This document shows, in pieces, positions 4,832 through 63,233 of a DNA stretch of 64,000 nt. Location of the stretch: NCBI RefSeq assembly GCF_040938485.1, contig NW_027271421.1, forward strand, positions 438,567 through 502,566, written 5' to 3'. Made by a program: the position numbers and the translations under genes. The DNA is from Diadema antillarum (lineage: Eukaryota). Each line of letters opens with the position of its first letter. Position 1 is the stretch's first letter. The notes under the pieces are model-generated. The model was given only the letters and a program-made list of their open reading frames with translations, ran no database searches and had not been told where the DNA came from.

Positions 4832-4947
4832 TCAGTTACAGGTAGACCCTTGCTTGTACTCCTCGAATTCTTGTTGCCATCCAGTCAGTCCCGTTTTCCA
4901 GATGCTAAAACTGTCTTGCCAATCCTTCTCTAGTTCGTCGATGTCTC
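4832..4947 (-). CDS. P2 exon 10 (terminal; WAT/T-peptide-like tail DIDELEKDWQDSFSIWKTGLTGWQQEFEEYKQGSTCN, stop TGA 4832-4834)
   Basis: Acceptor tatcag| at 4948-4950, phase 1. Trp residues at a 7-residue spacing and a C-terminal Cys. Confidence 0.7.
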
Positions 4948-11189: not shown

Positions 11190-13410
11190 ATTATGGAATG
11201 ACGGTGTGAAACGACAAATTACTGGCAGCGATATCAGGAGAATGGCATGACGAATACATGCGAGCGAGGGGAGCGAGCGAGCTTGAAAATTTTGACATTT
11301 TACAGTCCAAAAACTGCCGTTTGTAGCCATATTTTTTTGCTTTGTAAATTAAGGGGGGCGCACCGGGCGCAACTGCTGGCAATTACTGGCAGCAACATCA
11401 GGTAAACTGCATAGTAATTAAATGCGAGCGAGCAAAGAGAGCGAGTTTGGAAATTTTGACATTTTACAGTCCCAAAACTGCCATTTGGAGCCATATTTTT
11501 TCGCTTTGGAAATAAAGGAGGCGTGGGGGGGGGGGGGAGGGTCGCAACGGGCGCAACTGCCGGTAATTACTGGTAGCAACATCAGGAGAATTGCATAACA
11601 ATTAAATGCGATCGAGGTAAGCGAGCGAGCTTGAAAATTTTGACATTACAGTCCAAAAACTGCCGTTTGTAGCCATATCTATTTGCTTTGGAAATTAAGG
11701 GGGCGCACCGGGCGCAACTGCTGGCAATTACTGGCAGCAACATCAGGTGAATGGCATAGCAATTAAATGCGAGCGAGCGAAGAGAGCGAGCTTGAAAATT
11801 TTTGACATTTTACAGTCCAAAAACTGCCGTTTGGAGCCATATTTCTTCGCTTTGGAAATAAAGGAGGGGTGGGGGCGCAACGGGGCGCAACTGTCGGTAA
11901 TTACTGGCAGCAACATCAGGAGAATTGCATAACAATTAAATGCGAGCGAGCGAGCGAGCGAGCTTGAAAATTTTGACATTTTACAGTCCAAAAACTGCCA
12001 TTTGTAGCCATATTTTTTTTTTTGCTTTGGAAATTAAGGGGGGGGGGCGCACCGGGCGCAACTGCTGGCAATTTTACTGGCAGCAACATCAGGTGAATGG
12101 CATAACAATTAAATGCGAGCGAGCGAAGAGAGCGAGCTTGAAAATTTTGACATTTTACAATCTAAAAACTGCCTTTTGGAGCCATATTTTTTCGCTTTGG
12201 AAATAAAGGAGGGGGGGGGGGGGCGCACCGGGCGCAACTGCCGGCAATTACAGGCAGCAACATCAGGAGAATTGCGTAACAATTAAATGCGAGCGAGCGA
12301 GCGAGCGAGCTTGAAAATGTTGACATTTTACAGTAAAAAACAAACAAACTGCCGTTTGTAGCTATATTTCTTCGCTTTAGAATTAAAGGGGGCGCATCGG
12401 GCGCAATTGCTGGCAAATACTGGCAGCAATATCAAGAGAGCATAATGATTACATTCGAGCGAGCGGAATGAGCGAGCTTGAAAATTTTGCATTTTACAGT
12501 CCAAAAACTGCCGTTCTTAGCGATATTTTTCGCTTTGGAAATTAAGGGGGAGGCGCAACGGGCGAAACTGCAGGCAAGTACTGGCAGCAACATCAGAAGA
12601 ATGGCATAAAGATTAAATGCGAGCGAGCGAAGAGAGCGAGCTTGAAAATTTTACATTTTACAGTCTAAAAACTGCCGTTCTTAGCCATATTTTTTCGCTT
12701 TGGAAATTAAGGGGGGGGGGGGCGCACCGGGCGCAACTGCAGGCAATTACTGGCAGCAACATCAGAAGAATGGCATAAAGATTAAATGCGAGCGAACGGA
12801 GCGAGCGAGCTTGAAAATTGTGACATTTTACATTCCCCAAACTGCCGTTTGTAGCTATATTTTTCGCTTTGGAAATTAAGGGGGGGGGGCGCACCAGGCG
12901 CAACTGCCGGCAATTACTGGCAGCAACATCAGAAGAATGGCATAAAGATTGAATGCGAGTGAGTGAAGAGAGCGAGCTTGAAAATTTTACATTTTACAGT
13001 CTAAAAACTGCCGTTCTTAGCCATATTTTTTCGCTTTGGAAATTAAGGGGGGGGGGGGGCGCACCGGGCGCAACTGCAGGCAATTACTGGCAGCAACATC
13101 AGAAGAATGGCATACAGATTAAATGCGAGCGAACGGAGCGAGCGAGCTTGAAAATTTTGACATTTTACAATCCCCAAACTGCCGTTTGTAGCTTCAAGTA
13201 TATTTTTTCGCTTTGGAAATTAAGGGGGCGCACCAGGCGCAACTGCCGGCAATTACTGGCAGCAACTCCAGGAGAATGGCATTACGACTAAATGCAAGCG
13301 AGAGGAGCGAGCAAGCTTGAAAATTTGACATTATTTACTGTCCACAAACTGCCGTTTGCAGCTATTTTTTTTTCGCTTTGAAAATTAAAGGGGGGGGGGA
13401 CGCCCGGTGC
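11190..13410. repeat. ~169-bp satellite, about 13 tandem copies
   Basis: The motif gcgagcgagcttgaaaattttgacattttacagtccaaaaactgccgtttgtagccatatttt...gcgcaccgggcgcaactgctggcaattactggcagcaacatcagg recurs with periods of 163-180 bp. Copies differ in poly-G and (GAGC)n length. Confidence 0.85.
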
Positions 13411-15388: not shown

Positions 15389-15562
15389 CCTTGATGTAGG
15401 CGCGTAGACGTTCAGATAGAGGCAATCCTCGGAGGTAAAAAAGTCAAAAGTGTTGGTCTGCTCACAAGCAGGAGAAAACTCCGTGGCATTCCTTTCCCCT
15501 GACCATGACGTCATGTTTGTGGGCGGGGCAAATCGTATGGGCGGGGCCGCGTAAGGTACACC
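15389..15562 (-). CDS. P2 exon 2 ([58 protein letters not shown])
   Basis: Acceptor cttacag|GGT, donor agg|gtatgt, 174 nt, phase 0. Confidence 0.75.
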
Positions 15563-20138: not shown

Positions 20139-20287
20139 TCACGTGACATTCTCTTTTGACAGGTTTGAGATTCGTGACAAAGTAGGTTCATTCTTGTATT
20201 CCTCGAACGCCTGCTGCCATGCTGTCATCTCAGTCTTCCAGTCATCATAAATTTCCCGCCATTCCTTCTCAGTGTCACTCAGGTCGT
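20139..20287 (-). CDS. P3 exon 10 (terminal; DLSDTEKEWREIYDDWKTEMTAWQQAFEEYKNEPTLSRISNLSKENVT, stop TGA 20139-20141)
   Basis: Acceptor ttatccag|, phase 1. A WAT-like Trp heptad is present. The C-terminal Cys of the paralogs is replaced (TLS) and the tail is 12 residues longer. Confidence 0.7.
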
Positions 20288-24823: not shown

Positions 24824-24942
24824 CTGCATGATGATTTTGCTGATGTAAGGCCTACTCAGCTTGGAGAGGAGGAGGAGGTTGACACAAGCTGCACCCGCAC
24901 TCTGACCGAAGAGAGTTATCTGGTCCTTGTCTCCTCCAAAGG
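24824..24942 (-). CDS. P3 exon 5 (nucleophile elbow variant: [40 protein letters not shown])
   Basis: Acceptor ggtgccag|, donor cag|gtatat, 119 nt. The motif is GQSAG rather than GESAG. Confidence 0.75.
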
Positions 24943-26925: not shown

Positions 26926-27102
26926 CTTGTTACTCGGGGAGTACACGTTCAGATAGAGACAGTCCTCTGACATGTAGGGGATTTCAGTGTTGTTAACCTG
27001 CAGGCAGGCTGAGGCAAACTCGGTGGCGTTTCTCTCGCCCGTCCATGGAGTCTTGCTCACTGGCTTAGCGAAACGAGCAGGTGGATTGGCGTAAGGAACT
27101 CC
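26926..27102 (-). CDS. P3 exon 2 ([59 protein letters not shown])
   Basis: Acceptor cctgtag|GGA, donor aag|gtgagc, 177 nt. Confidence 0.8.
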
Positions 27103-31403: not shown

Positions 31404-32906
31404 AATTCTCAATGTTTATTATTTATTTATTATTCGTTCACTCATTATCTAACCATGAGAATACGATAGTGAATTCATGACGTGTGTAATATCACCCCTC
31501 CTCTTATGTTCTACACTGTAATTCTCTTGTGGCTCCTTGTCCACCAAGGTGAATTTCCGAGCACGTTAAAGTCGGCAAACACAAACATTTATGTGTTTAT
31601 CACTACACAGTCGAACGAGATATATACTTCATCTGCGTTGACTGGTAAAGCAAACCACTCTCTGTGCAACGTTCAATTCTATGTATCATCATGAGACAGT
31701 GACCAGGAGTATAATATCCTGCATTTCATTGTTTCAGTCTTAAAGAATTAATACAGTTATTAATTCTATGACATAATGGGGAAATATGTTATATATATAA
31801 AAGTTTAATTCAATGGGTTTATTAAGGTTCATATATCTTAGTTTTGTCTCTTTAAGGTGAAACGTTTGGTACGTTTTAACCATTCTTTCGACTATTTAAT
31901 GATTTAAGCAAACTTATGATACTTACACACTACAATGCAAATTGGACATACACTATGTTGGATTACACACTGAAGAATGACGGGACAGAAAACTGATAGA
32001 TGACAAGCAAGCGGAATGTATGTGCAAATGTCGTGGAGCAAACACTTTAGAGTGTTTATATTGACAATTCCTTTGGAATATCACTGTTGTAGAAAGTATG
32101 TCCTTTAGGATACTCCTGGTCAGATTTAGATTGTTCGTCAGTCATTTGACATGTCGATCATTTTTCCACTAGACAATACTTCACGGCAGAATTCGCTTAC
32201 TCAGGTCTTCGCTTAAGATTTTAATTTAAGAAAACTGCTGTTGTACTTTTATTTACAAGTAAAACCAGAATGACCACATGACTGCCACGTATCCAATGGT
32301 ATCCGCGTTGTTGGTATCAGAAGGGCTCACATTTGATTCTTTTAAGACAACTTTTGAAAACTCAAAAAGAATTTGAATAACGATCAAGAATTACAACAAC
32401 TTTGTCAATCAGAATACGATGATGGACACTGTCAGAGATAACTATGCATGATCAATGTAAATGTAAACATAACAGGTACATGATAAGCCAAAGCATGCCC
32501 CTTAATTCAAATTTTGCATTATACGAAATCATACCAAAAAAAGGTAAAACTATTAGAGAAAATAACACATGAGGCAAAGAGGTCATGTGATCGAAGGAAG
32601 GTCTCGTGTTCGTACGGTGAAGATTTGTAATCAACTTTAGATCTTAGATTGCATTTTATATTATTATAACGGGGAGTTCATGTAACTTTTCATTGCTGAT
32701 TGATAACAATATTTTAATATCTTTTATGATTATTTCAGACACCATGATCTACACACTATGTGCTTCAAGTCATTCTGTTTTGCAATTTCCAGGCAATATT
32801 AAACTGACTCGGGTACTGTGTTGTCAAACTAGCTCCAATTCAAATAAAGACATGTAGATGTAAATCGACTCAGAGCATTCAAGGTAGCTTATACGATCAA
32901 GCCAGA

Positions 32907-33022
32907 TTAACTGCAGGTAGGTTCATTCTTGTATTCCTCGAACGCCTGCTGCCATGCTGTCATCTCAGTCTTCCAGTCATCATAACTTTCCCGCCATTCC
33001 TTCTCAATGTCACTAATGTCGT
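32907..33022 (-). CDS. P4 exon 10 (terminal; DISDIEKEWRESYDDWKTEMTAWQQAFEEYKNEPTCS, stop TAA 32907-32909)
   Basis: Acceptor ctttccag|, phase 1. WAT-like Trp heptad and C-terminal Cys. Confidence 0.75.
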
Positions 33023-33395
33023 CTGGAAAGAGAGTGAGACAGAATGAAGAATCGTTGTAATTACCACAATTAGCGCTCTTTCTTTTTAGAGTTCAAACTT
33101 ACATGCTGCTCGTCTGGCCGTGCAGACCATTGGCAAATCTCAAAAACGTTTTGAAGTTGCTTTTCTGCCGAGGAATTTCTTATAAATCTCATATTTTAGT
33201 GAAGTTCTGTGATTGATGACATCTATACCCAATTTCATTAAAAAACGAAGATGGCACATTCACACTCTTTACCTTGGAAGAAGATATGACGTTGAAAAAA
33301 AATTAAAAAGCCGAAGACAAATTATAAGGTTGATTGCTGAGCAATTTATATCAAACATATAGTATAACGAAGTGATTATGCTCTCGAAAAAATAC

Positions 33396-33577
33396 CTGTA
33401 AAAGCCACGAGCGACGGGAAGTAGTGGTTCCAGAAATGGCACTGCCTGGCTCTGACAGCCCTCCCTGTTGGCAATCCTATGGCTATCTCCTTGTATGTGA
33501 GTTCAGGGATCGTGTACTCTGGCCAGGCGTACTGTCCTTCCAACGGGTCTGAATCCATGCTCGGCTTACTCGGATTT
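33396..33577 (-). CDS. P4 exon 9 (NPSKPSMDSDPLEGQYAWPEYTIPELTYKEIAIGLPTGRAVRARQCHFWNHYFPSLVAFT)
   Basis: Anchored to ORF 33376..33606. Acceptor attgtag|, donor g|gtattt, 182 nt. Confidence 0.8.
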
Positions 33578-39981: not shown

Positions 39982-42900
39982 ATGGGCCAGGACGAGAGAC
40001 TTCCCTGCGCAGCTCTTCCTCACCTTAATGCAATTCACACTCAAGTCACAATATCACCCATTTTCATCCTAATCATTCCAAAGATGATACCACTAAGCAT
40101 AGGTAGCATAGTATGGAATATGCGCACTCTGTTGGACCGTGCCGGGACTGAAAGACCTGAGAGAAGGACCGCACTTATTGCTGGAGAACTAGCAAGGTAC
40201 AGGGTACAGATTGCCGCCCTTAGCGAAACACGCCTTGCTGTTGGAGGTCAACTGTCATATACACGCCGGTTACACATTCTCCTGGATCGGTCGCAAACAA
40301 GACGAACGTCATGAAGTAGGAGTCGGATTTGCCATTATGGGGAACCCAAACCCAAGGAGCAATGTGGATTGAGTGAGAGCAGCAACATTAGTAGAACAAA
40401 TCAGTGAAAGTTCGAGGAAAATCGGACAGTCGATGAAAGAGTTATGAATTTTTAAAGTGTTGGTGTTGGAACCGCTGGATGAGGAGACTGCTAGAGGTTA
40501 TGACATTGAGTGGACAACAATAGAAAGAAAATATAAAGGGAATTCAATAACAATTCGTTTTTCATGGAAATGACACATTCCATCAACTTGATACTGATGT
40601 TAAGGGTAGCAATTATTCCCTCTGCTTTCTGAAAGCGGTTAGTCATGTGTTCTTTTATTATGGTAGAAAAGTGATTTTTTTTTTTTTGGGGGGGGGGTGG
40701 AATTCCCTTTACATTTTCTTTACATTGTGTTCATGGCGATGTGTTCTACTAATATTAGTGCTTTCTCTCAATCGTTATTGCTCTTTGGGTTCCCTTTAAA
40801 TCCAACTGAGTCAACAAGCCGGCTGTGCCCCCAAGGGTCTATCAATCATCGTCTAATGACTGTCCGACTTCCATTACCAAGAAAGCGGTATGCCACAATG
40901 ACCAGCGCCTACGCAACCACGATGACCAGCCCTGATGGTGTCAAGGAAAGATTCTATGAGTACCTGCAAGCGACTATTCCCGCTGTGTCCAGATTAGATA
41001 AACTCATCACCCTTGGTGACTTCAAAGCTAGGGTCAGCACCGACTATGCATCATGAAAAGGAGTCCCATATAAGGAAAATGGTCTGGGAAATGCAACAGC
41101 ATAATGGCTTATTGCTGCTGGAAACTTGCGCTGCACACCAGCTGCTCATTACCAATACAGTCTTTCGTCTACCGAACCGTTATAAGACGACATGGATGCA
41201 TCCTCGCTCTGAGCACTGGCACTCGCTGGATTACCTTATCGTTAAACAAAGGGACGGGCAAGACGTTATAGTCACAAAAGGGCTTTTTACACTTGTAAAT
41301 TTTTGCTTAGCCCCGGACCAACGGTGGAGCGAAGGGGGACCTTAGCCCCACCGTTGGTACGGGACTATCCTTAGCCCACTTTCTGTGTACACTCATTTTT
41401 GCCAAAGTGGGCTAGCCCCACCGATAGTACGGTACTATCTGGCCCTGCAAAATAGCAGGGGTTAGCACCGCAATTGCGGTGCCAAGCAAGTGAGTGTAAA
41501 CAGAACGAAAAAATAATCCTGGGCTAAGCGACGGAGACGAAGTCCGACCCTCACTGACCAATCAAAAACGAGGTAATCAAGTGCTGCTGATGCGTGCGTG
41601 TACGTGTACAGTACACAGCGTAATTATGAATATTCATGTGGTTTGGAAAGTCCGGGGCTAAGAAATTCGAGTGTAAAAAGGTCAGTTTTCTCCTTAGCCC
41701 CGGGCAAGAGATAGGACGGGACTAATTGGCGAGTGTAAAAAGCTGAAAAAATTGGTACGGGACTAACGATAGTCCTGGGTCAGAGAAAGTCCGGGGTTAA
41801 GAAACACAAGTGTAAAAAGCCCTAAAAGCCATGTGCGGTGCAGCAAAGTGCTGGACAGATCACCGTCTGTTGATCTCAAAGCTCAGTATCAGGATTCAAC
41901 CACGTAGAGGTTTTCAGGGAAAGATGGCATTGAAACGTTAGATGTTAAAGTTGGAGAGAGATCAGGTACAGCAGTCACTCATTGAAGAAATCGACAGCAA
42001 GTTGCAACAACAAAGTTTCAGCTCACGGGATGTTGAGTCCGACTGGATTCTCTTTCGCAGCTCTGTCTATGCTGCCGCCTCTGAGACGGTGGGTACGTCC
42101 CATCACTTAACTAGGACTGGTTCAATGACAAGAGCGAACGCATTCAATCTTTGCTCGAAGAGAAGCATCGCCTTCCGAGCACACCTCAACGACCCGACAT
42201 CAGCTTCCAAGAAAACTGTTTTTTACAACATCAGGAGAAGCGTACAGCTGGAACTATGGCAAATGCAGGATGCATGGCTAGCATAAAGCTGATACGATAC
42301 AGTCTTATGCTGATCAATTTCAATTTCAATTTCAATTTTATTTCCATTTCCATTGAATAAACAGGGAAAATTATATACAATACATTCATCGACATGAAAA
42401 ACATAATACAGACAACACTGGATCACTTCAAACAAAATTTGTAGATCTACTTATTTTGATGTCCCATGATATGCACTGGACTTGTACTGCCACTGCCTAG
42501 TAATTTCTATATATTTTATCTCCTATGGCGACCAGGGATGCCATCTCATATCGCTTTTTATATTGGAAAAAATATCAACTACCGTGTATTATGTATATGG
42601 ACCAATTTGTTTGGGCTCGTCTCTCCTCCTCAGTGCAGCAGATGGAAACGTACTGATCACAGACACGAAGAAGATTGTTGAACGCTTGACAGAACACTTC
42701 AAAATGTCCTCAACGGTCAATCTGCCATCAGCGAGTAAACAATCACAAGCCTGCTCCAAGTTCCAACCAATCACTCTCTTGCCGATATCCCCACAGAAGC
42801 CGAAGTGGAAGCAGCAGTAAAACATATTGTCCTGTTGAAAAGAACCTGGCGCTGACTCTATCCCTGTAGAAATCTACGCCTCTGGTCGCCATAACCTTGA

Positions 42901-44400
42901 CAAAGCTCACCGAGCTATTCCAGTCCGTCTGGAACGAAGAGAAAATCCCACAGGAACCCTGGATGCTTCTGTCGTCCATTTGTACAAGTACAAAGGAAAT
43001 CGAGCTTGCGACAACTACCGGGGAGATCTTTGCCAGAATCTTGCTGAACCGCCTGATCGACCACTTAGAGGAAGGTTTACAACCTGAAAGTTAATGCGCG
43101 CTCAGACAGAGTCGCAGCACAGTAACACAATGGATATGATTTTCGCAGCACGTCAACTCCAGGAGATATACTAGGAGCAGAATGTAGGTATCGACACCAC
43201 CTTTGTAGACCTGACTAAGGCTTTTGACACCGTATGACTCTGGACTCTTCAATGATCATGGCCAAATTTGACTGCCCTGCAACACTCATCTCACTGGTAA
43301 AACAGTTTCATGCAAGCTAACGTGCAGGATAGCGGTGAACGCTCAGAGCCCTTCCCTGTCACAAACGGCGTGAAACTTGCCCCAACCGTCTTAAGCAAGA
43401 AGTTCTCAGCAATGTTGATATGCCTTTCGGGCGGGAGATATCGTTGTCGATTTCAGATTTAGAACTGATGGAAAGCTGTTTAACCTACGGATACTGCGGA
43501 CAAAATCAAAATTCCGGGAGGATATCGCCTGTGACTTTCTCTTCGTAGATGACAGCTCCCTGTATCTCAGGGCGAAAATCCAATTGAATATGCTAGTACT
43601 CAGTCTGACATGCAAGAAATCATTGACCAATTCGCCAACGCCTGTATCGACTGAAGTGATGCATCAGCCAGCTCCTACAATTCCCTACACAGAGCCAACC
43701 ATCATGATTAATGGCGAGAAGCTGAAAGTGGCAGACAAATGTGTTTACCTTGGCAGCACAAAGCCAGCTCGGCTTTCAGCAGACTCATAGACGGTGTGTG
43801 GGAAAGAAGAGGAAAACCTTCAAACCAAAGTATAGCTCTGTCGCGCAATAGTCATGCCCTCTGTACTGTATGCCTGCCAAACATGGATAGTGTATAGCCG
43901 GTATGCCAGGCAGCTGAACGCCTTCCACATAAGATGCCTCCAAAACTTGCTGCACGCGAAATGGCAAGACAACGTGCCAGATACCAAGATACTTCAGAGA
44001 GCCCATCAGATGGAGAGTATATTCATGAGATGCTCTAAAGCGCTCCCAACTCAGGCGGGGCATGTACTTCGAGTGTCCAACGAACATTTACCAAAGTGAC
44101 TGCTCTATGGTGAACTAATGGAAGGCAAGCGCTCTCACGGAGGTCAGAGGAAGCGCTACAAGGGCACATTAAAAGCTTGGATGAAATGCTGCACCATCAA
44201 TCCTGACACATGTGAAGCAGCGGCGCTAGACCGATCTGCCTGGCGATCTGTGGTCACCTCTGGCCCTTATTAGACTACGAAGTGAGACGTGTCGAGGAGC
44301 AGGAAAAGGAACGGCAGCGACGAAAATTAGCAGAGCGACCTCTCAGCCTGGCCTACCTCCACGGCATCAGATTTTTTTTTTTTTTTCAGAGCGAGGATCG
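39982..44400 (+). mobile_element. Degenerate non-LTR retrotransposon (LINE, L2/CR1-clade-like), antisense in P4 intron 5
   Basis: Frameshifted ORF pieces: an APE-endonuclease N-terminus (IVWNMRTLLD...RPERRTALIAGELARYRVQIAALSETR, ...LITLGDFKARVSTDYAS), RT motifs (FVDLTKAFDTV..., ...ADD...), and the tail ...HIRCLQNLLHAKWQDNVPDTKILQ...HVLRVSNEHLPK. Multiple stops and frameshifts. The ends are approximate. Confidence 0.65.
41280..41821. mobile_element. MITE nested inside the P4 LINE copy (542 bp)
   Basis: Perfect 16-bp TIRs GGGCTTTTTACACTTG ... CAAGTGTAAAAAGCCC, with internal GTGTAAAAAG and TAGCCCC subrepeats. The flanks are acaaaag|...|taaaag. The P5 LINE copy is uninterrupted at this site (gtcgccaaagccatgtgtggtgcagcag, around 59330). 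Confidence 0.6.
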
Positions 44401-49071: not shown

Positions 49072-49254
49072 CTTTGGATTAGGAGCAAACACGTTCAAAT
49101 ACAGACAGTCTTCTGACATACCAGTAGGCGGGAAAAAGCCAAATACACCTTGCTGACACACAACTTCAAATTCCGTAGCGTTCCTTTCTCCTTCCCATGA
49201 AGTCATATTCGTGGGCGGAGCGAATCTCTCTGGAGGGGCTGCGTAAGGCACCCC
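49072..49254 (-). CDS. P4 exon 2 ([61 protein letters not shown])
   Basis: ORF 48928..49251. Acceptor gtatag|GGG, donor aag|gtagga, 183 nt. Confidence 0.8.
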
Positions 49255-54678: not shown

Positions 54679-54794
54679 TTAATTGCAGGTAGGCTCATTC
54701 TTGTATTCCTCGAACGCCTGCTGCCATGCTGTCATCTCAGTCTTCCAGTCATCATAACTTTCCCGCCATTCCTTCTCTGTGTCACTCATGTCGT
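54679..54794 (-). CDS. P5 exon 10 (terminal; DMSDTEKEWRESYDDWKTEMTAWQQAFEEYKNEPTCN, stop TAA 54679-54681)
   Basis: Acceptor cttccag|. Homologous to P4 exon 10. Confidence 0.75.
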
Positions 54795-58722: not shown

Positions 58723-58912
58723 CTGCATCAGTATTAACATAAAAAAGGAAATGAAATAGGTCACTGGAATGTATCCGTAGAAAACATAAAAGTAAAAGCA
58801 TTGAAACACTGGAACACCTTTTACTGGAAAGTCATCATGTATGTAGTTTTTGGGAAGAATATCTAAAATGATGACACACGAAATTTAATGTCAGCCTTTA
58901 GTCAAAGGACGA

Positions 58913-61900
58913 ATGACTGTCGGGCTTCCACTGCCAAGAAAGCGGCATGCCACAATGATCAGCGCCTACACACCCACGATGACCAGCCCTGATGATGTCA
59001 AGGAAAGGTTCAATGAGAACCTGCAAGCGACCATTCCCACTGTGTCCAGATTAGATAAACTCATCACCCTTGGTGACTTCAAAGCTAGGGTCAGCACCGA
59101 CTATGCATCATGGAAAGGAGTCCCAGGGAAGATGGTCTGGGCAAATGCAATAGATGGCTTATTGCTACTGGAAACCCGCGCTGTACATCAGCTACTCATT
59201 ACCAACACAGTCTTTTGTCTACCCAACCGTAACAAGACGACATGGCTGTATCCTCGCTCCAAACACTGGCACTTGCTGGATTACATCATGGTCAGACAAA
59301 GGGACAGGCAAGACGTTATAGTCGCCAAAGCCATGTGTGGTGCAGCAGAGTGCTGGACAGATCACCGTCTGTTGATCTCAAAGCTCAGTATCAGGATTCA
59401 ACCACGTAGACGTCTTCAGGGAAAGAAGACATTGAAACGTTAGATGTTTCAAAGATGGAGAGAGACCAGGCCAAGCAGCCACTCGTTAAAGAGATCGACA
59501 GCAAGCTGCAACAAAGTTCAACTCACTGGATGTTGAGTCCGACTGGATTGTCTTTCGCAGCATTGTCTATGACGCTGCCTCAGAGATGGTAGATCCCATC
59601 ACATGAAAGCGTTAGGACTGGTTCGCATTCAGTCTTTTAAGCGTCGCCTTCACCGAGCAGACCTCAACGACCCGACATCAGCGTCCAAGAAAGCTGCTTT
59701 TTACAACATCAGAGGAAGCGTACAACTGGAACTACGGCAAATGCAGGATGCACGGCAGAGCGATAAAGCTGTTAAGATCCAGTGTTATGCTAATCGCAAC
59801 GACATGGAAAACTTCTACAGAGAATACTGGATCACTTCAAGCAAAATTTGAAGATCTAGCTAAATATTTTATATCCCTTTATATGCACTGGACTTGTACT
59901 GCCACTGCCTGGTAATTTGTATATATGTTATCTCCTATGGCGACCAGGGATGACATCTCATAGCGCTTTTTATAGTGGAAAAGGCGCTCTTAAAATATCA
60001 ACTATTATTAGAGCGCTCAAGACTTGTATATGGACCAACTTCGTTGGGACTGTCTTCCCCAGTGCAGATGGAAACGTACTGATCACAGACCAGAAAAAGG
60101 TTCTTGAACGCTGGGCAGAACAGTTCAGAAATGTCCTCATTGGTCGATCCAGCTGCCATCAGCGAGGAAGCGATCACAAGGCTGCTCCAGGTTCCAACCA
60201 ATCACTCACTTGCCAATATCCCCACAGAAGCTGACGTGGAAGAAGCAGTAAAACACATATCTTGTGAAAAAGCACCTGGCGCTGACTCCATCCCTGCAAA
60301 AATCTGCACCTCTGGTCGCCAAACCCTCACTAGAAAGCTCACTGAGCTATTCCAATCTGTATGGAACCAAGAGAAAATCCCGCAGAAACCCTATGGATGC
60401 TTCTATCGTCCATTTGTACAAGCGCACAGGAAATCGACAAGCGTGCGACAACCACCACGGCATCTCGTTGCTATTTGTTATCGGAAAGATCTTTGCCAGA
60501 ATCTTGTTGAACCGCCTGATCGACCACTTAGAGGAAGGCTGACTACCTGAACGTCAACGCGGGTTCAGACAGGGTCGCAGTACAGTGGTTGTGATTTTCG
60601 CAGTACGTCAACTCCACGAGAAATGCCAGGAGCAGAGCTAGTGTCGGTATCTACACCACCTTCGTAGACCTGACTAAGGCTTTTGACACCGTATGCCGAG
60701 AAGGACTCTGGATGATCATGCCCAAGTTTGTCTGCCCTGCAACGCTCATCTCATTGGTCAGACAGTTCCATGACTGCATCCAAGCTAACGTGCAGGATGG
60801 CGATGAACGCTCAGAGCCCTTCCCTGTCATAAACGGCGTGAAACAAGGCTGCGTCCTCGTCCCTACCCTCTTTAGCATGGTGTTCGCTCATCTATGCAGA
60901 CAGATGCATTTCGTGAGGGTGGCATCGGAGTGGACTGCAAATTCAGAACTGATGGAAATCTGTTCAACGTACGGAGACTGCAGACAAAATCAAAAGTCCA
61001 GGAGGATATCGCCCGTGACTTTCTTTTTGCTGATGACTGTGCCCTGTATGGTAGAACCCAGTCTGACATGCAGGAAAGCATTGACCAACTCGCCAACACC
61101 TGTGACGACTTCGGTCTGACGATAAGCATAAAGAAGACTTTAGTGATGCATCAGCCCAGGGAAGTGGGAAGAGAGTTTCCCACCTCCCTGATCAGCCAGC
61201 TCCTGCAATCATTCACTATACACAAAGCCAACCATCACGGTCAACGGCGAGAAGTTGAAAGTGGCAGAAAAGTTACCTATCTAAAGTAGCACACTGTTAC
61301 GAAATATCTACATCGAAGAAGCCGCGAAGTCTCCCGCAGAATTGCCAGGGCCTGCTCGGCTGTCAGCAGACTCAGAGACAGGGTGTAGGAGAGAAGAGGA
61401 AAACCTTCAAAACAAAGTAAAGCTGTGCCGCGCAGTCGTCATACCCTCTCTACTGTACACCTGCCAAACATGGACAGTGTACAGTCGGCATGCCAGGCAG
61501 GTGAACTCCTTCCACATGAGATGCCTCCGAAATCTGCTACACGTAAAATGGCAAGGGAAGGTGCCAGACACCGAAATACTTCAGGGAGACCAGATGGAGA
61601 GTTTTGATGCGATGCTCAAGCGCTCCCAACTCAGATGGGCCGGGCATGTACTTCGAATGGCCGACGAACATTTGCCAAAGTGACTGCTCTACGGTGAACT
61701 AATGGAAGGCAAGCGCTCTCAAGGAGGTCAGAAGATTGAAGCGCTACAAGGACACACTATATAAAAGCTTGGATGAAATGCTGCAGCGTCAATCGTGACA
61801 CATGGGAAGTAACGGCACAAGACCGATCTTCCTGGCGATCCGTGGTCAGCTCTGGTTTATAAGGCTACGAAGTGAAACGTGTGGACGAGCAGGAACAACT

Positions 61901-63068: not shown

Positions 63069-63233
<165 letters not shown>

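Follow-up and report, generated by a model that had tools for sequence, protein, structure and literature searches.

Vertebrate AChE_T and BChE end in a T-peptide, or WAT domain (for tryptophan amphiphilic tetramerization), four copies of which form parallel helices that coil around one antiparallel polyproline-II peptide of ColQ or PRiMA. The WWW motif of this domain stacks on consecutive prolines, and C-terminal cysteines link the subunits to one another or to the anchor (PMC8518539, PMC5943944, PMC2212707). In BChE the organiser peptide is drawn from lamellipodin and many other proteins, and any proline-rich peptide can serve (PMC8518539). Here we analyse a stretch of 64,000 nucleotides from Diadema antillarum (NCBI RefSeq assembly GCF_040938485.1, contig NW_027271421.1, positions 438,567 to 502,566 of the forward strand; hereafter the window, in whose own numbering all coordinates are given), which holds five tandem minus-strand paralogues, genes A to E, encoding type-B carboxylesterase/cholinesterase-like proteins. 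Comparisons at several levels support the reading that the terminal exon of gene B (32907..33022) encodes a genuine homologue of the vertebrate T-peptide and not a look-alike.

The full-text literature that we searched yielded no description of echinoderm T-peptides. Johnson and Moore reportedly analysed, in a 2012 study, the oligomerisation domains of the echinoderm cholinesterase family in Strongylocentrotus purpuratus.

The terminal exon and its product

Gene models were built from conserved-peptide anchors, with GT-AG junctions chosen against the closest database proteins. Gene B (50125-32907, minus strand) is complete, and its 10 exons encode a protein of 601 amino acids in which a signal peptide precedes the COesterase domain and the WAT tail. 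Exon 10, the exon of interest (32907..33022, minus strand), lies behind the clean acceptor cttTCCAG/AC (a slash marks the junction), with a pyrimidine tract and an AG upstream (ctctctttccag/AC). It is entered in phase 1, supplies two bases of the Asp1 codon and tail residues 2-38, and closes with a TAA stop at 32909-32907. The tail reads D-DISDIEKEWRESYDDWKTEMTAWQQAFEEYKNEPTCS, and the minus strand of 32904-33026 translates to PDDISDIEKEWRESYDDWKTEMTAWQQAFEEYKNEPTCS followed by a stop. A first-pass annotation, made from the letters alone, had proposed this exon and a tail with three regularly spaced tryptophans, an FEEY and a Cys near the C-terminus. Our splice-site and translation analysis confirms both: tryptophans stand at positions 10, 17 and 24, exactly 7 apart, and are followed by FEEY and a penultimate Cys.

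The same annotation had placed a cholinesterase-type helix in the penultimate exon, and this too holds. Exon 9 of gene B (33396..33577, minus strand) encodes ..GRAVRARQCHFWNHYFPSLVAFT, the end of the catalytic domain, which in alignment corresponds to the C-terminal helix alpha10 of Torpedo AChE and its Cys521; it includes the helix itself, RAVRARQCHFWNHYFPSLVAFT, and a cysteine equivalent to Cys521. Intron 9 (33023..33395, minus strand) joins the two exons in phase 1, from the donor ACAG/gtattttt to the acceptor given above. All nine junctions in each gene model are GT-AG, and the exon 9/10 junction (ACAG/gta ... ccag/AC) is in phase 1 and at the same position in genes A, B, C and D. For genes C and D our spliced models agree in every residue with RefSeq proteins of one 1.26-Mb contig annotated as 'cholinesterase-like [Diadema antillarum]' (XP_071499733.1 for gene C; XP_071499715.1 and XP_071499716.1 for gene D), so that the splice from exon 9 to exon 10 is also the choice of the NCBI pipeline for these two genes. 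In a homologue, P0033, the catalytic domain and the tail lie in a single uninterrupted open reading frame (ORF) on a 2,395-nt intronless Logan contig which, read as the assembled transcript that its pattern suggests, shows the two joined in that homologue's mRNA.

A different end is also encoded at this junction. Read-through of the gene B exon 9 donor (33379-33396) gives a short alternative C-terminus, ..AFTGIFSRA and a stop, and RefSeq models a similar read-through C-terminus for one paralogue (P0130, XP_071492945.1). Such an end recalls the 'R' (read-through) variant of vertebrate AChE.

Related terminal exons, all on the minus strand, close gene A (54679..54794; DDMSDTEKEWRESYDDWKTEMTAWQQAFEEYKNEPTCN and a stop, ending ..PTCN), gene D (4832..4947; RDIDELEKDWQDSFSIWKTGLTGWQQEFEEYKQGSTCN and a stop, ending ..STCN) and gene C (20139..20287; ending ..PTLSRISNLSKENVT and a stop). 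All four tails have W10, W17 and W24, the heptads of gene C being intact; Cys at tail position 37 is found in genes A, B and D and is absent from gene C. In all six reading frames of the window, W-x6-W-x6-W is matched four times, and each match falls in the terminal exon of a tandem gene; 200 shuffles that kept the composition gave 0.1 matches on average and at most 2. The tail is under purifying selection, with ratios of nonsynonymous to synonymous substitution rates (dN/dS) of 0.11-0.42 among the paralogues; between genes B and A, 4 of the 116 bases differ and dN/dS is 0.16.

Homology to the vertebrate T-peptide

The first-pass annotation had likened the tail to the T-peptide of vertebrate AChE_T and BChE, and several lines of comparison bear this out. 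Pfam AChE_tetra (PF08674) was the top match for each of the four tails taken in isolation, with E-values from 5.7e-5 (gene B) to 1.2e-3, although all four scores lie below the family's gathering cut-off. When full-length gene B was compared with the PDB by phmmer, its alignments with Torpedo AChE (6EUC) and human AChE (2X8B) ran without a gap across the alpha10 helix and the T-peptide, from FWN.. to the Cys. Identity to human AChE_T over the tail amounts to 10 of 38 residues (~26%).

We then built a profile of the tail itself, comprising 38 positions from 35 sea-urchin and sea-cucumber tails only and excluding all catalytic residues. Among 177,635 PDB sequences its best match was 1VZJ_A, a crystal structure of the human WAT peptide with PRAD (E=4.2e-10, gapless, residues 2-37 to 2-37), followed by human AChE (5.7e-8), Torpedo AChE (5.3e-7) and BChE, including the cryo-electron microscopy tetramer 6I2T (~1e-6). 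All PDB matches were cholinesterase T-peptides except for one marginal non-cholinesterase, 2MXD_A (E=0.027). Against 1.84 billion representative proteins, the profile returned 54 matches at E<=1e-3, made up of echinoderm-type tails, vertebrate AChE/BChE T-peptides (E<=1e-4) and two artefacts; the named non-vertebrate matches were all echinoderms, starfish and crinoids among them. The two artefacts, P0132 and P0135, match the profile strongly and were set aside as heptad low-complexity repeats in which HALVDWQ recurs many times over.

Position by position, E7, W10, W17, W24, F28 and Y31 are invariant in a joint alignment of echinoderm tails with vertebrate BChE, and Y/F14, M21 and C37 coincide with their counterparts in human and Torpedo AChE, M21 being Leu in gene D. 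On a helical wheel the residues W10, Y/F14, W17, M21, W24, F28 and Y31 form a stripe within 120-220 degrees, as they do in the human and Torpedo peptides. The exon boundary is shared as well: mammalian ACHE genomic ORF fragments (P0154, P0155, P0162 and P0165) diverge from the mRNA directly upstream of the T-peptide start, the Diadema ORF diverges directly upstream of DDISDIEKEW, and in both the boundary stands nine residues before W10. Gapless alignment, the specificity of the tail-only profile, the shared stripe positions, the exon boundary and the conservation of the heptads across echinoderms together support true homology of the tail.

AlphaFold2, run on an alignment of 85 sequences, returned a model of the gene B protein with a predicted local distance difference test (pLDDT) score of 94 and a predicted template modelling (pTM) score of 0.91. 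In this monomer alpha10 spans residues 546-564 and, after a break of 3 residues, the tail follows as a continuous helix (residues 568-595, pLDDT 82-86); it is predicted to be amphipathic. The top PDB matches in Foldseek were all AChE or BChE, including the tail-bearing chains 6I2T_B and 4BDT_A, with target-normalised template modelling (TM) scores of ~0.84-0.91.

Distribution across echinoderms

The tryptophan periodicity is kept in about 60 of the 120 best homologues, which come from Diadema, Strongylocentrotus, Lytechinus, Apostichopus and Holothuria. Periodicity in orthologues had been proposed at the outset as a test of the T-peptide reading, and it proved to be conserved across sea urchins and sea cucumbers: in 35 echinozoan tails W10, W17 and W24 are invariant and Cys37 is nearly so. 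Relatives from starfish, brittle stars and crinoids have a variant that is one residue longer, W-x6-W-x7-W. Esterases with WAT tails are represented in all five echinoderm classes, and Diadema has more than 20 paralogues.

Two further features mark the more distant relatives. Eight starfish and brittle-star proteins (P0037, P0040, P0045, P0047, P0048, P0055, P0056 and P0060) share the form W-x6-W-KYTD-x3-W and have no terminal Cys. Several brittle-star proteins end in RDEL or RNEL, which resembles a signal for retention in the endoplasmic reticulum (ER) added to a WAT-like helix.

The host enzymes

The catalytic domain matches Pfam COesterase at E-values of about 1e-128 (3e-128 for gene B). 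We mapped its residues on Torpedo AChE numbering, which was checked internally. The catalytic triad S200, E327 and H440 is kept, as are W233 and the three cholinesterase disulfides, C67-C94, C254-C265 and C402-C521. The Omega loop is ~10 residues shorter, and the deletion takes out the choline-binding Trp84 not only in genes B, C and D but in all echinoderm homologues that were aligned; the shortened loop is encoded in exon 2 of gene B (49072-49254) and at 26926-27102 in gene C, 15389-15562 in gene D and 251-523 in gene E. Only W233 is identical among the 14 aromatic residues of the gorge in gene B; W114 is replaced by Phe and W432 by Tyr, which are still aromatic. Not conserved are the peripheral-site residues W279, Y121, Y70, D72 and Y334, F290 of the acyl pocket (F288/F290), and F330, F331 and Y442. 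The loss of Trp84 and this gorge pattern are common to every echinoderm relative aligned.

Because Trp84 and most of the gorge aromatics are missing, we do not class these proteins as cholinesterases. They are cholinesterase-derived or cholinesterase-like carboxylesterases with a WAT tail. Judged by these residues, they probably work as general esterases and not in acetylcholine hydrolysis, and the RefSeq name 'cholinesterase-like' probably overstates their function.

Immediately ahead of the catalytic Ser, where Torpedo has Glu199 (GESAG), the paralogues differ: gene A has Val (GVSAG; exon 5, 63072-63190) and gene C has Gln (GQSAG; exon 5, 24824-24942). This variation suggests altered catalysis in genes A and C.

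Loss of the terminal cysteine in gene C

For gene C, called P3 in the first-pass annotation, the earlier claim was that the tryptophan heptads are retained, the Cys is lost and 12 residues are gained. Retention and loss stand. The tail is 11 residues longer than that of gene B; the count of 12 takes in every residue after Thr36, all of them standing in place of the original Cys-Asn/Ser. The DNA of gene C resembles the other copies up to a sharp breakpoint within codon 36 (20181/20180), 3' of which its sequence is unrelated. With the similar tract ending inside codon 36, Cys37 is removed. A search for the lost end, CCTACCTGCAATTAATC, found it in genes A and B only. Since the Cys is kept both in the D. 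setosum orthologue (P0122) and in a second D. antillarum copy of gene C (P0002, on the 2.94-Mb contig), its loss is recent and specific to the copy in the window.

The first-pass annotation took this loss to predict a different quaternary state for gene C, which is plausible. As judged from the residues, loss of Cys37 should abolish the covalent link and leave intact the Trp stripe that carries tetramerization.

The terminal exon also stands apart from the rest of the gene in its divergence. Synonymous sites of genes B and C are saturated with changes over exons 1-8; their divergence is 0.88 in exon 9 and only 0.09 in exon 10. The terminal exon of genes A, B and C has been homogenised, probably through gene conversion.

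A model for assembly and its alternatives

Every residue class used in the vertebrate assembly is present, and the same WAT assembly is therefore the most likely function of the tail, with oligomerisation and an organiser taken over by analogy from the vertebrate system. In each complete gene copy, a separate 3' exon, spliced in phase 1 directly after alpha10, appends a 38-residue T-peptide homologue to a secreted esterase. In such an assembly the peptide would fold into an amphipathic alpha-helix with one continuous face of W10, Y/F14, W17, M21, W24, F28 and Y31. The conserved four-helix bundle would hold catalytic domains together as dimers, four tail helices would coil around a proline-rich (polyproline II) peptide of another protein to give a tetramer, and the penultimate Cys37 would form a disulfide between subunits or to the organiser protein. 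Some unrelated protein rich in proline may act as organiser, which is the case in plasma BChE; alternatively the assembly may be homomeric. Taken as a whole, the account of echinoderm esterases that bear a T-peptide homologue and assemble as in vertebrates seems to us likely.

Several observations weigh against this account. The isolated tails score 19-23 bits (maximum 23.2) with AChE_tetra, and 17 bits within the full-length protein, below the gathering cut-off of 25; echinoderm relatives P0021, P0024, P0066, P0070 and P0071 reach the cut-off and the Diadema tails do not. Vertebrate Tyr20 is replaced, by Glu here and by Glu or Gly among the tails, and the catalytic domain is not that of a canonical cholinesterase. 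Neither the gene A nor the gene B protein has an exact match among the RefSeq and collection sequences searched, the closest database match to gene B being 92% identical. Splicing of gene B exon 10 consequently rests on sequence features rather than on a transcript, namely the canonical acceptor, the conserved phase-1 junction, the paralogues and the intact frame of 601 codons.

The search for partners recommended by the first-pass annotation also came out against it. We queried with human ColQ (PRAD and C-terminal domain, with the collagen region omitted) and human PRiMA, both validated by matches of 92-98% to mammalian entries. Each query returned ~170-190 proteins, and among the matches listed those with names were all vertebrate, in a word-index search of limited sensitivity. 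No proline-rich gene lies within the 64-kb window. A lack of ColQ and PRiMA in echinoderms would not imply the lack of an organiser, because BChE uses other proline-rich peptides and so requires no anchor of its own.

Among alternatives the most durable, which we nevertheless regard as unlikely, is that the tail is homologous to WAT and acts in echinoderms without a PRAD-type organiser, whether in disulfide-linked homodimers or homotetramers, as an exposed aromatic signal for ER retention or quality control, or in peripheral membrane attachment. It would fit with the failure to detect a ColQ or PRiMA relative outside vertebrates, with the pairing of a Trp tail and RDEL/RNEL in brittle-star relatives and with the missing Cys of starfish relatives. 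Vertebrate T-subunits are also said, in work from the Massoulie laboratory, to occur as homo-oligomers and amphiphilic monomers, their aromatic residues promoting ER degradation, and this would speak for use of the tail without PRAD. However, all seven PRAD-contacting stripe positions are conserved under purifying selection, which exceeds the needs of a generic amphipathic helix. BChE, moreover, takes any proline-rich peptide (PMC8518539), and the limited sensitivity of the ColQ/PRiMA searches tempers their negative outcome. We continue to favour tetramerization on a proline-rich organiser.

It is very improbable, in our judgement, that exon 10 of gene B is part of a copy that is decaying or not expressed, so that its tail is perhaps not made from this locus. 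The idea draws on the 92% best match noted above and on a retroelement-like insert of ~4 kb in intron 5 (~40000-44200). This insert is a more degenerate relative of an element at the equivalent place in gene A, where intron 5 holds, antisense to the gene, a non-LTR-type (LTR, long terminal repeat) reverse-transcriptase ORF (58889-61700, plus strand; Pfam RVT_1 at 60595-61116, E=4.6e-10). These intron 5 elements may explain why exact RefSeq proteins are missing for genes A and B. Retroelements in introns are common in active genes. In gene B none of the 10 exons is interrupted by a stop, every junction follows GT-AG, and both the catalytic triad and the cysteines of the disulfides are preserved; its tail differs from that of gene A at 4 of 116 bases, with the dN/dS of 0.16 given above.

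Convergence, in which an unrelated Trp-rich amphipathic helix would have acquired heptad spacing by chance, could appeal to the shortness of the peptide (38 residues, 10 of them identical to human AChE_T) and to the subthreshold Pfam score, but is effectively refuted by the specificity of the tail profile for cholinesterase tails (PDB E-values down to 4e-10; 1.84e9 proteins) and by the placement of the tail, gapless, at the corresponding point behind the equivalent helix of a shared fold, with the same Cys37 and the same exon-boundary residue.

Other features of the locus

The 64-kb window is eukaryotic in character, with ~38% G+C, introns, microsatellites and retroelement ORFs. Exons 1-5 of gene B lie at 50125-49964, 49254-49072, 48292-48133, 47723-47646 and 45593-45475, and exons 6-10 at 39482-39318, 37470-37025, 34513-34319, 33577-33396 and 33022-32907, all on the minus strand. 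Two other genes on this strand are complete with 10 exons each, gene C (28949-20139, 610 amino acids) and gene D (P2 in the first-pass annotation; 17550-4832, 602 amino acids). At the edges of the window, gene A (P5) is represented by exons 4-10 at 63998-54679, its 5' end running off the window, and gene E by exons 1-2 at ~2733-251, its 3' end likewise running off; both are on the minus strand.

Intron 3 of gene D contains a satellite (11217-13396) with a period of 169/346 bp in ~13 and 6 copies, which produces long stop-free ORFs on both strands. ORFs with PPPPPLFP at 11.2-13.4 kb were considered as a PRAD and rejected as read-throughs of this satellite. The only other proline run in the window, at ~35464, was rejected as a poly-C tract.

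Near-identical copies of cluster members are found on two contigs (1.26 Mb and 2.94 Mb) of the same D. antillarum assembly. P0003 pairs with gene D and P0002 with gene C, for example, and the copies represent either a haplotig or a segmental duplication.

Significance and comparison with known systems

That the tail is a member of the WAT/T-peptide family and that the genes belong to the annotated echinoderm 'cholinesterase 1-like' family is known already; genes C and D are in RefSeq, the WAT domain family is well known, and current understanding is not overturned. We regard as mildly new that the domain is missed by Pfam in Diadema, that its hosts lack Trp84, that it extends to all five echinoderm classes and that no ColQ or PRiMA is detectable alongside it. 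A tetramerization peptide is here carried by enzymes that cannot be classical cholinesterases, and at standard Pfam thresholds the domain goes unannotated in them; dozens of genes would gain it from a profile that takes echinoderm tails into account. The origin of the T-peptide and its dedicated exon is placed at or before the echinoderm-chordate ancestor. We raise as a tentative and somewhat doubtful extension that, should the echinoderm tail still tetramerise around a proline-rich peptide, WAT-polyproline assembly predates the vertebrate anchors and the cholinergic specialisation, and either an echinoderm organiser protein exists or the paralogues form mixed hetero-tetramers. If true, the tail on esterases without Trp84 would mark a WAT-polyproline system older than ColQ and PRiMA.

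Compared with the vertebrate AChE_T/BChE WAT domain, the Diadema tail is likewise a C-terminal peptide of ~40 residues right after alpha10, encoded in its own 3' exon from the same start residue. It has W10/W17/W24, F/Y14, M21, F28 and Y31 on one face, Cys37, and a secreted subunit of the COesterase fold. The two differ in that the Diadema peptide ends 1 residue after the Cys and vertebrate peptides 3 after, that the Diadema host enzyme is without a choline-binding site, that Tyr20 is Glu, and that no PRAD-bearing partner is detectable. With the vertebrate carboxylesterases CES1 and CES2 (hCES1A, PDB 9KWL, was among the fold matches), the Diadema esterases have in common the Ser-Glu-His triad and the COesterase fold, the lack of Trp84 and of a deep aromatic gorge, and probably a broad esterase activity. 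CES enzymes, in contrast, have an HXEL ER-retention end and no WAT tail, and the Diadema proteins, which keep all three cholinesterase disulfides, are closer to AChE and BChE in both score and alignment.

The closest described relatives are the echinoderm 'cholinesterase 1/cholinesterase-like' proteins in RefSeq (Strongylocentrotus, Lytechinus, Diadema, Apostichopus and others), of which the window genes are members. They differ from this family in nothing essential, gene C of this copy being without the Cys, and they share with their sea-urchin and sea-cucumber homologues a common exon plan, the Omega-loop deletion and the W-x6-W-x6-W...C tail.

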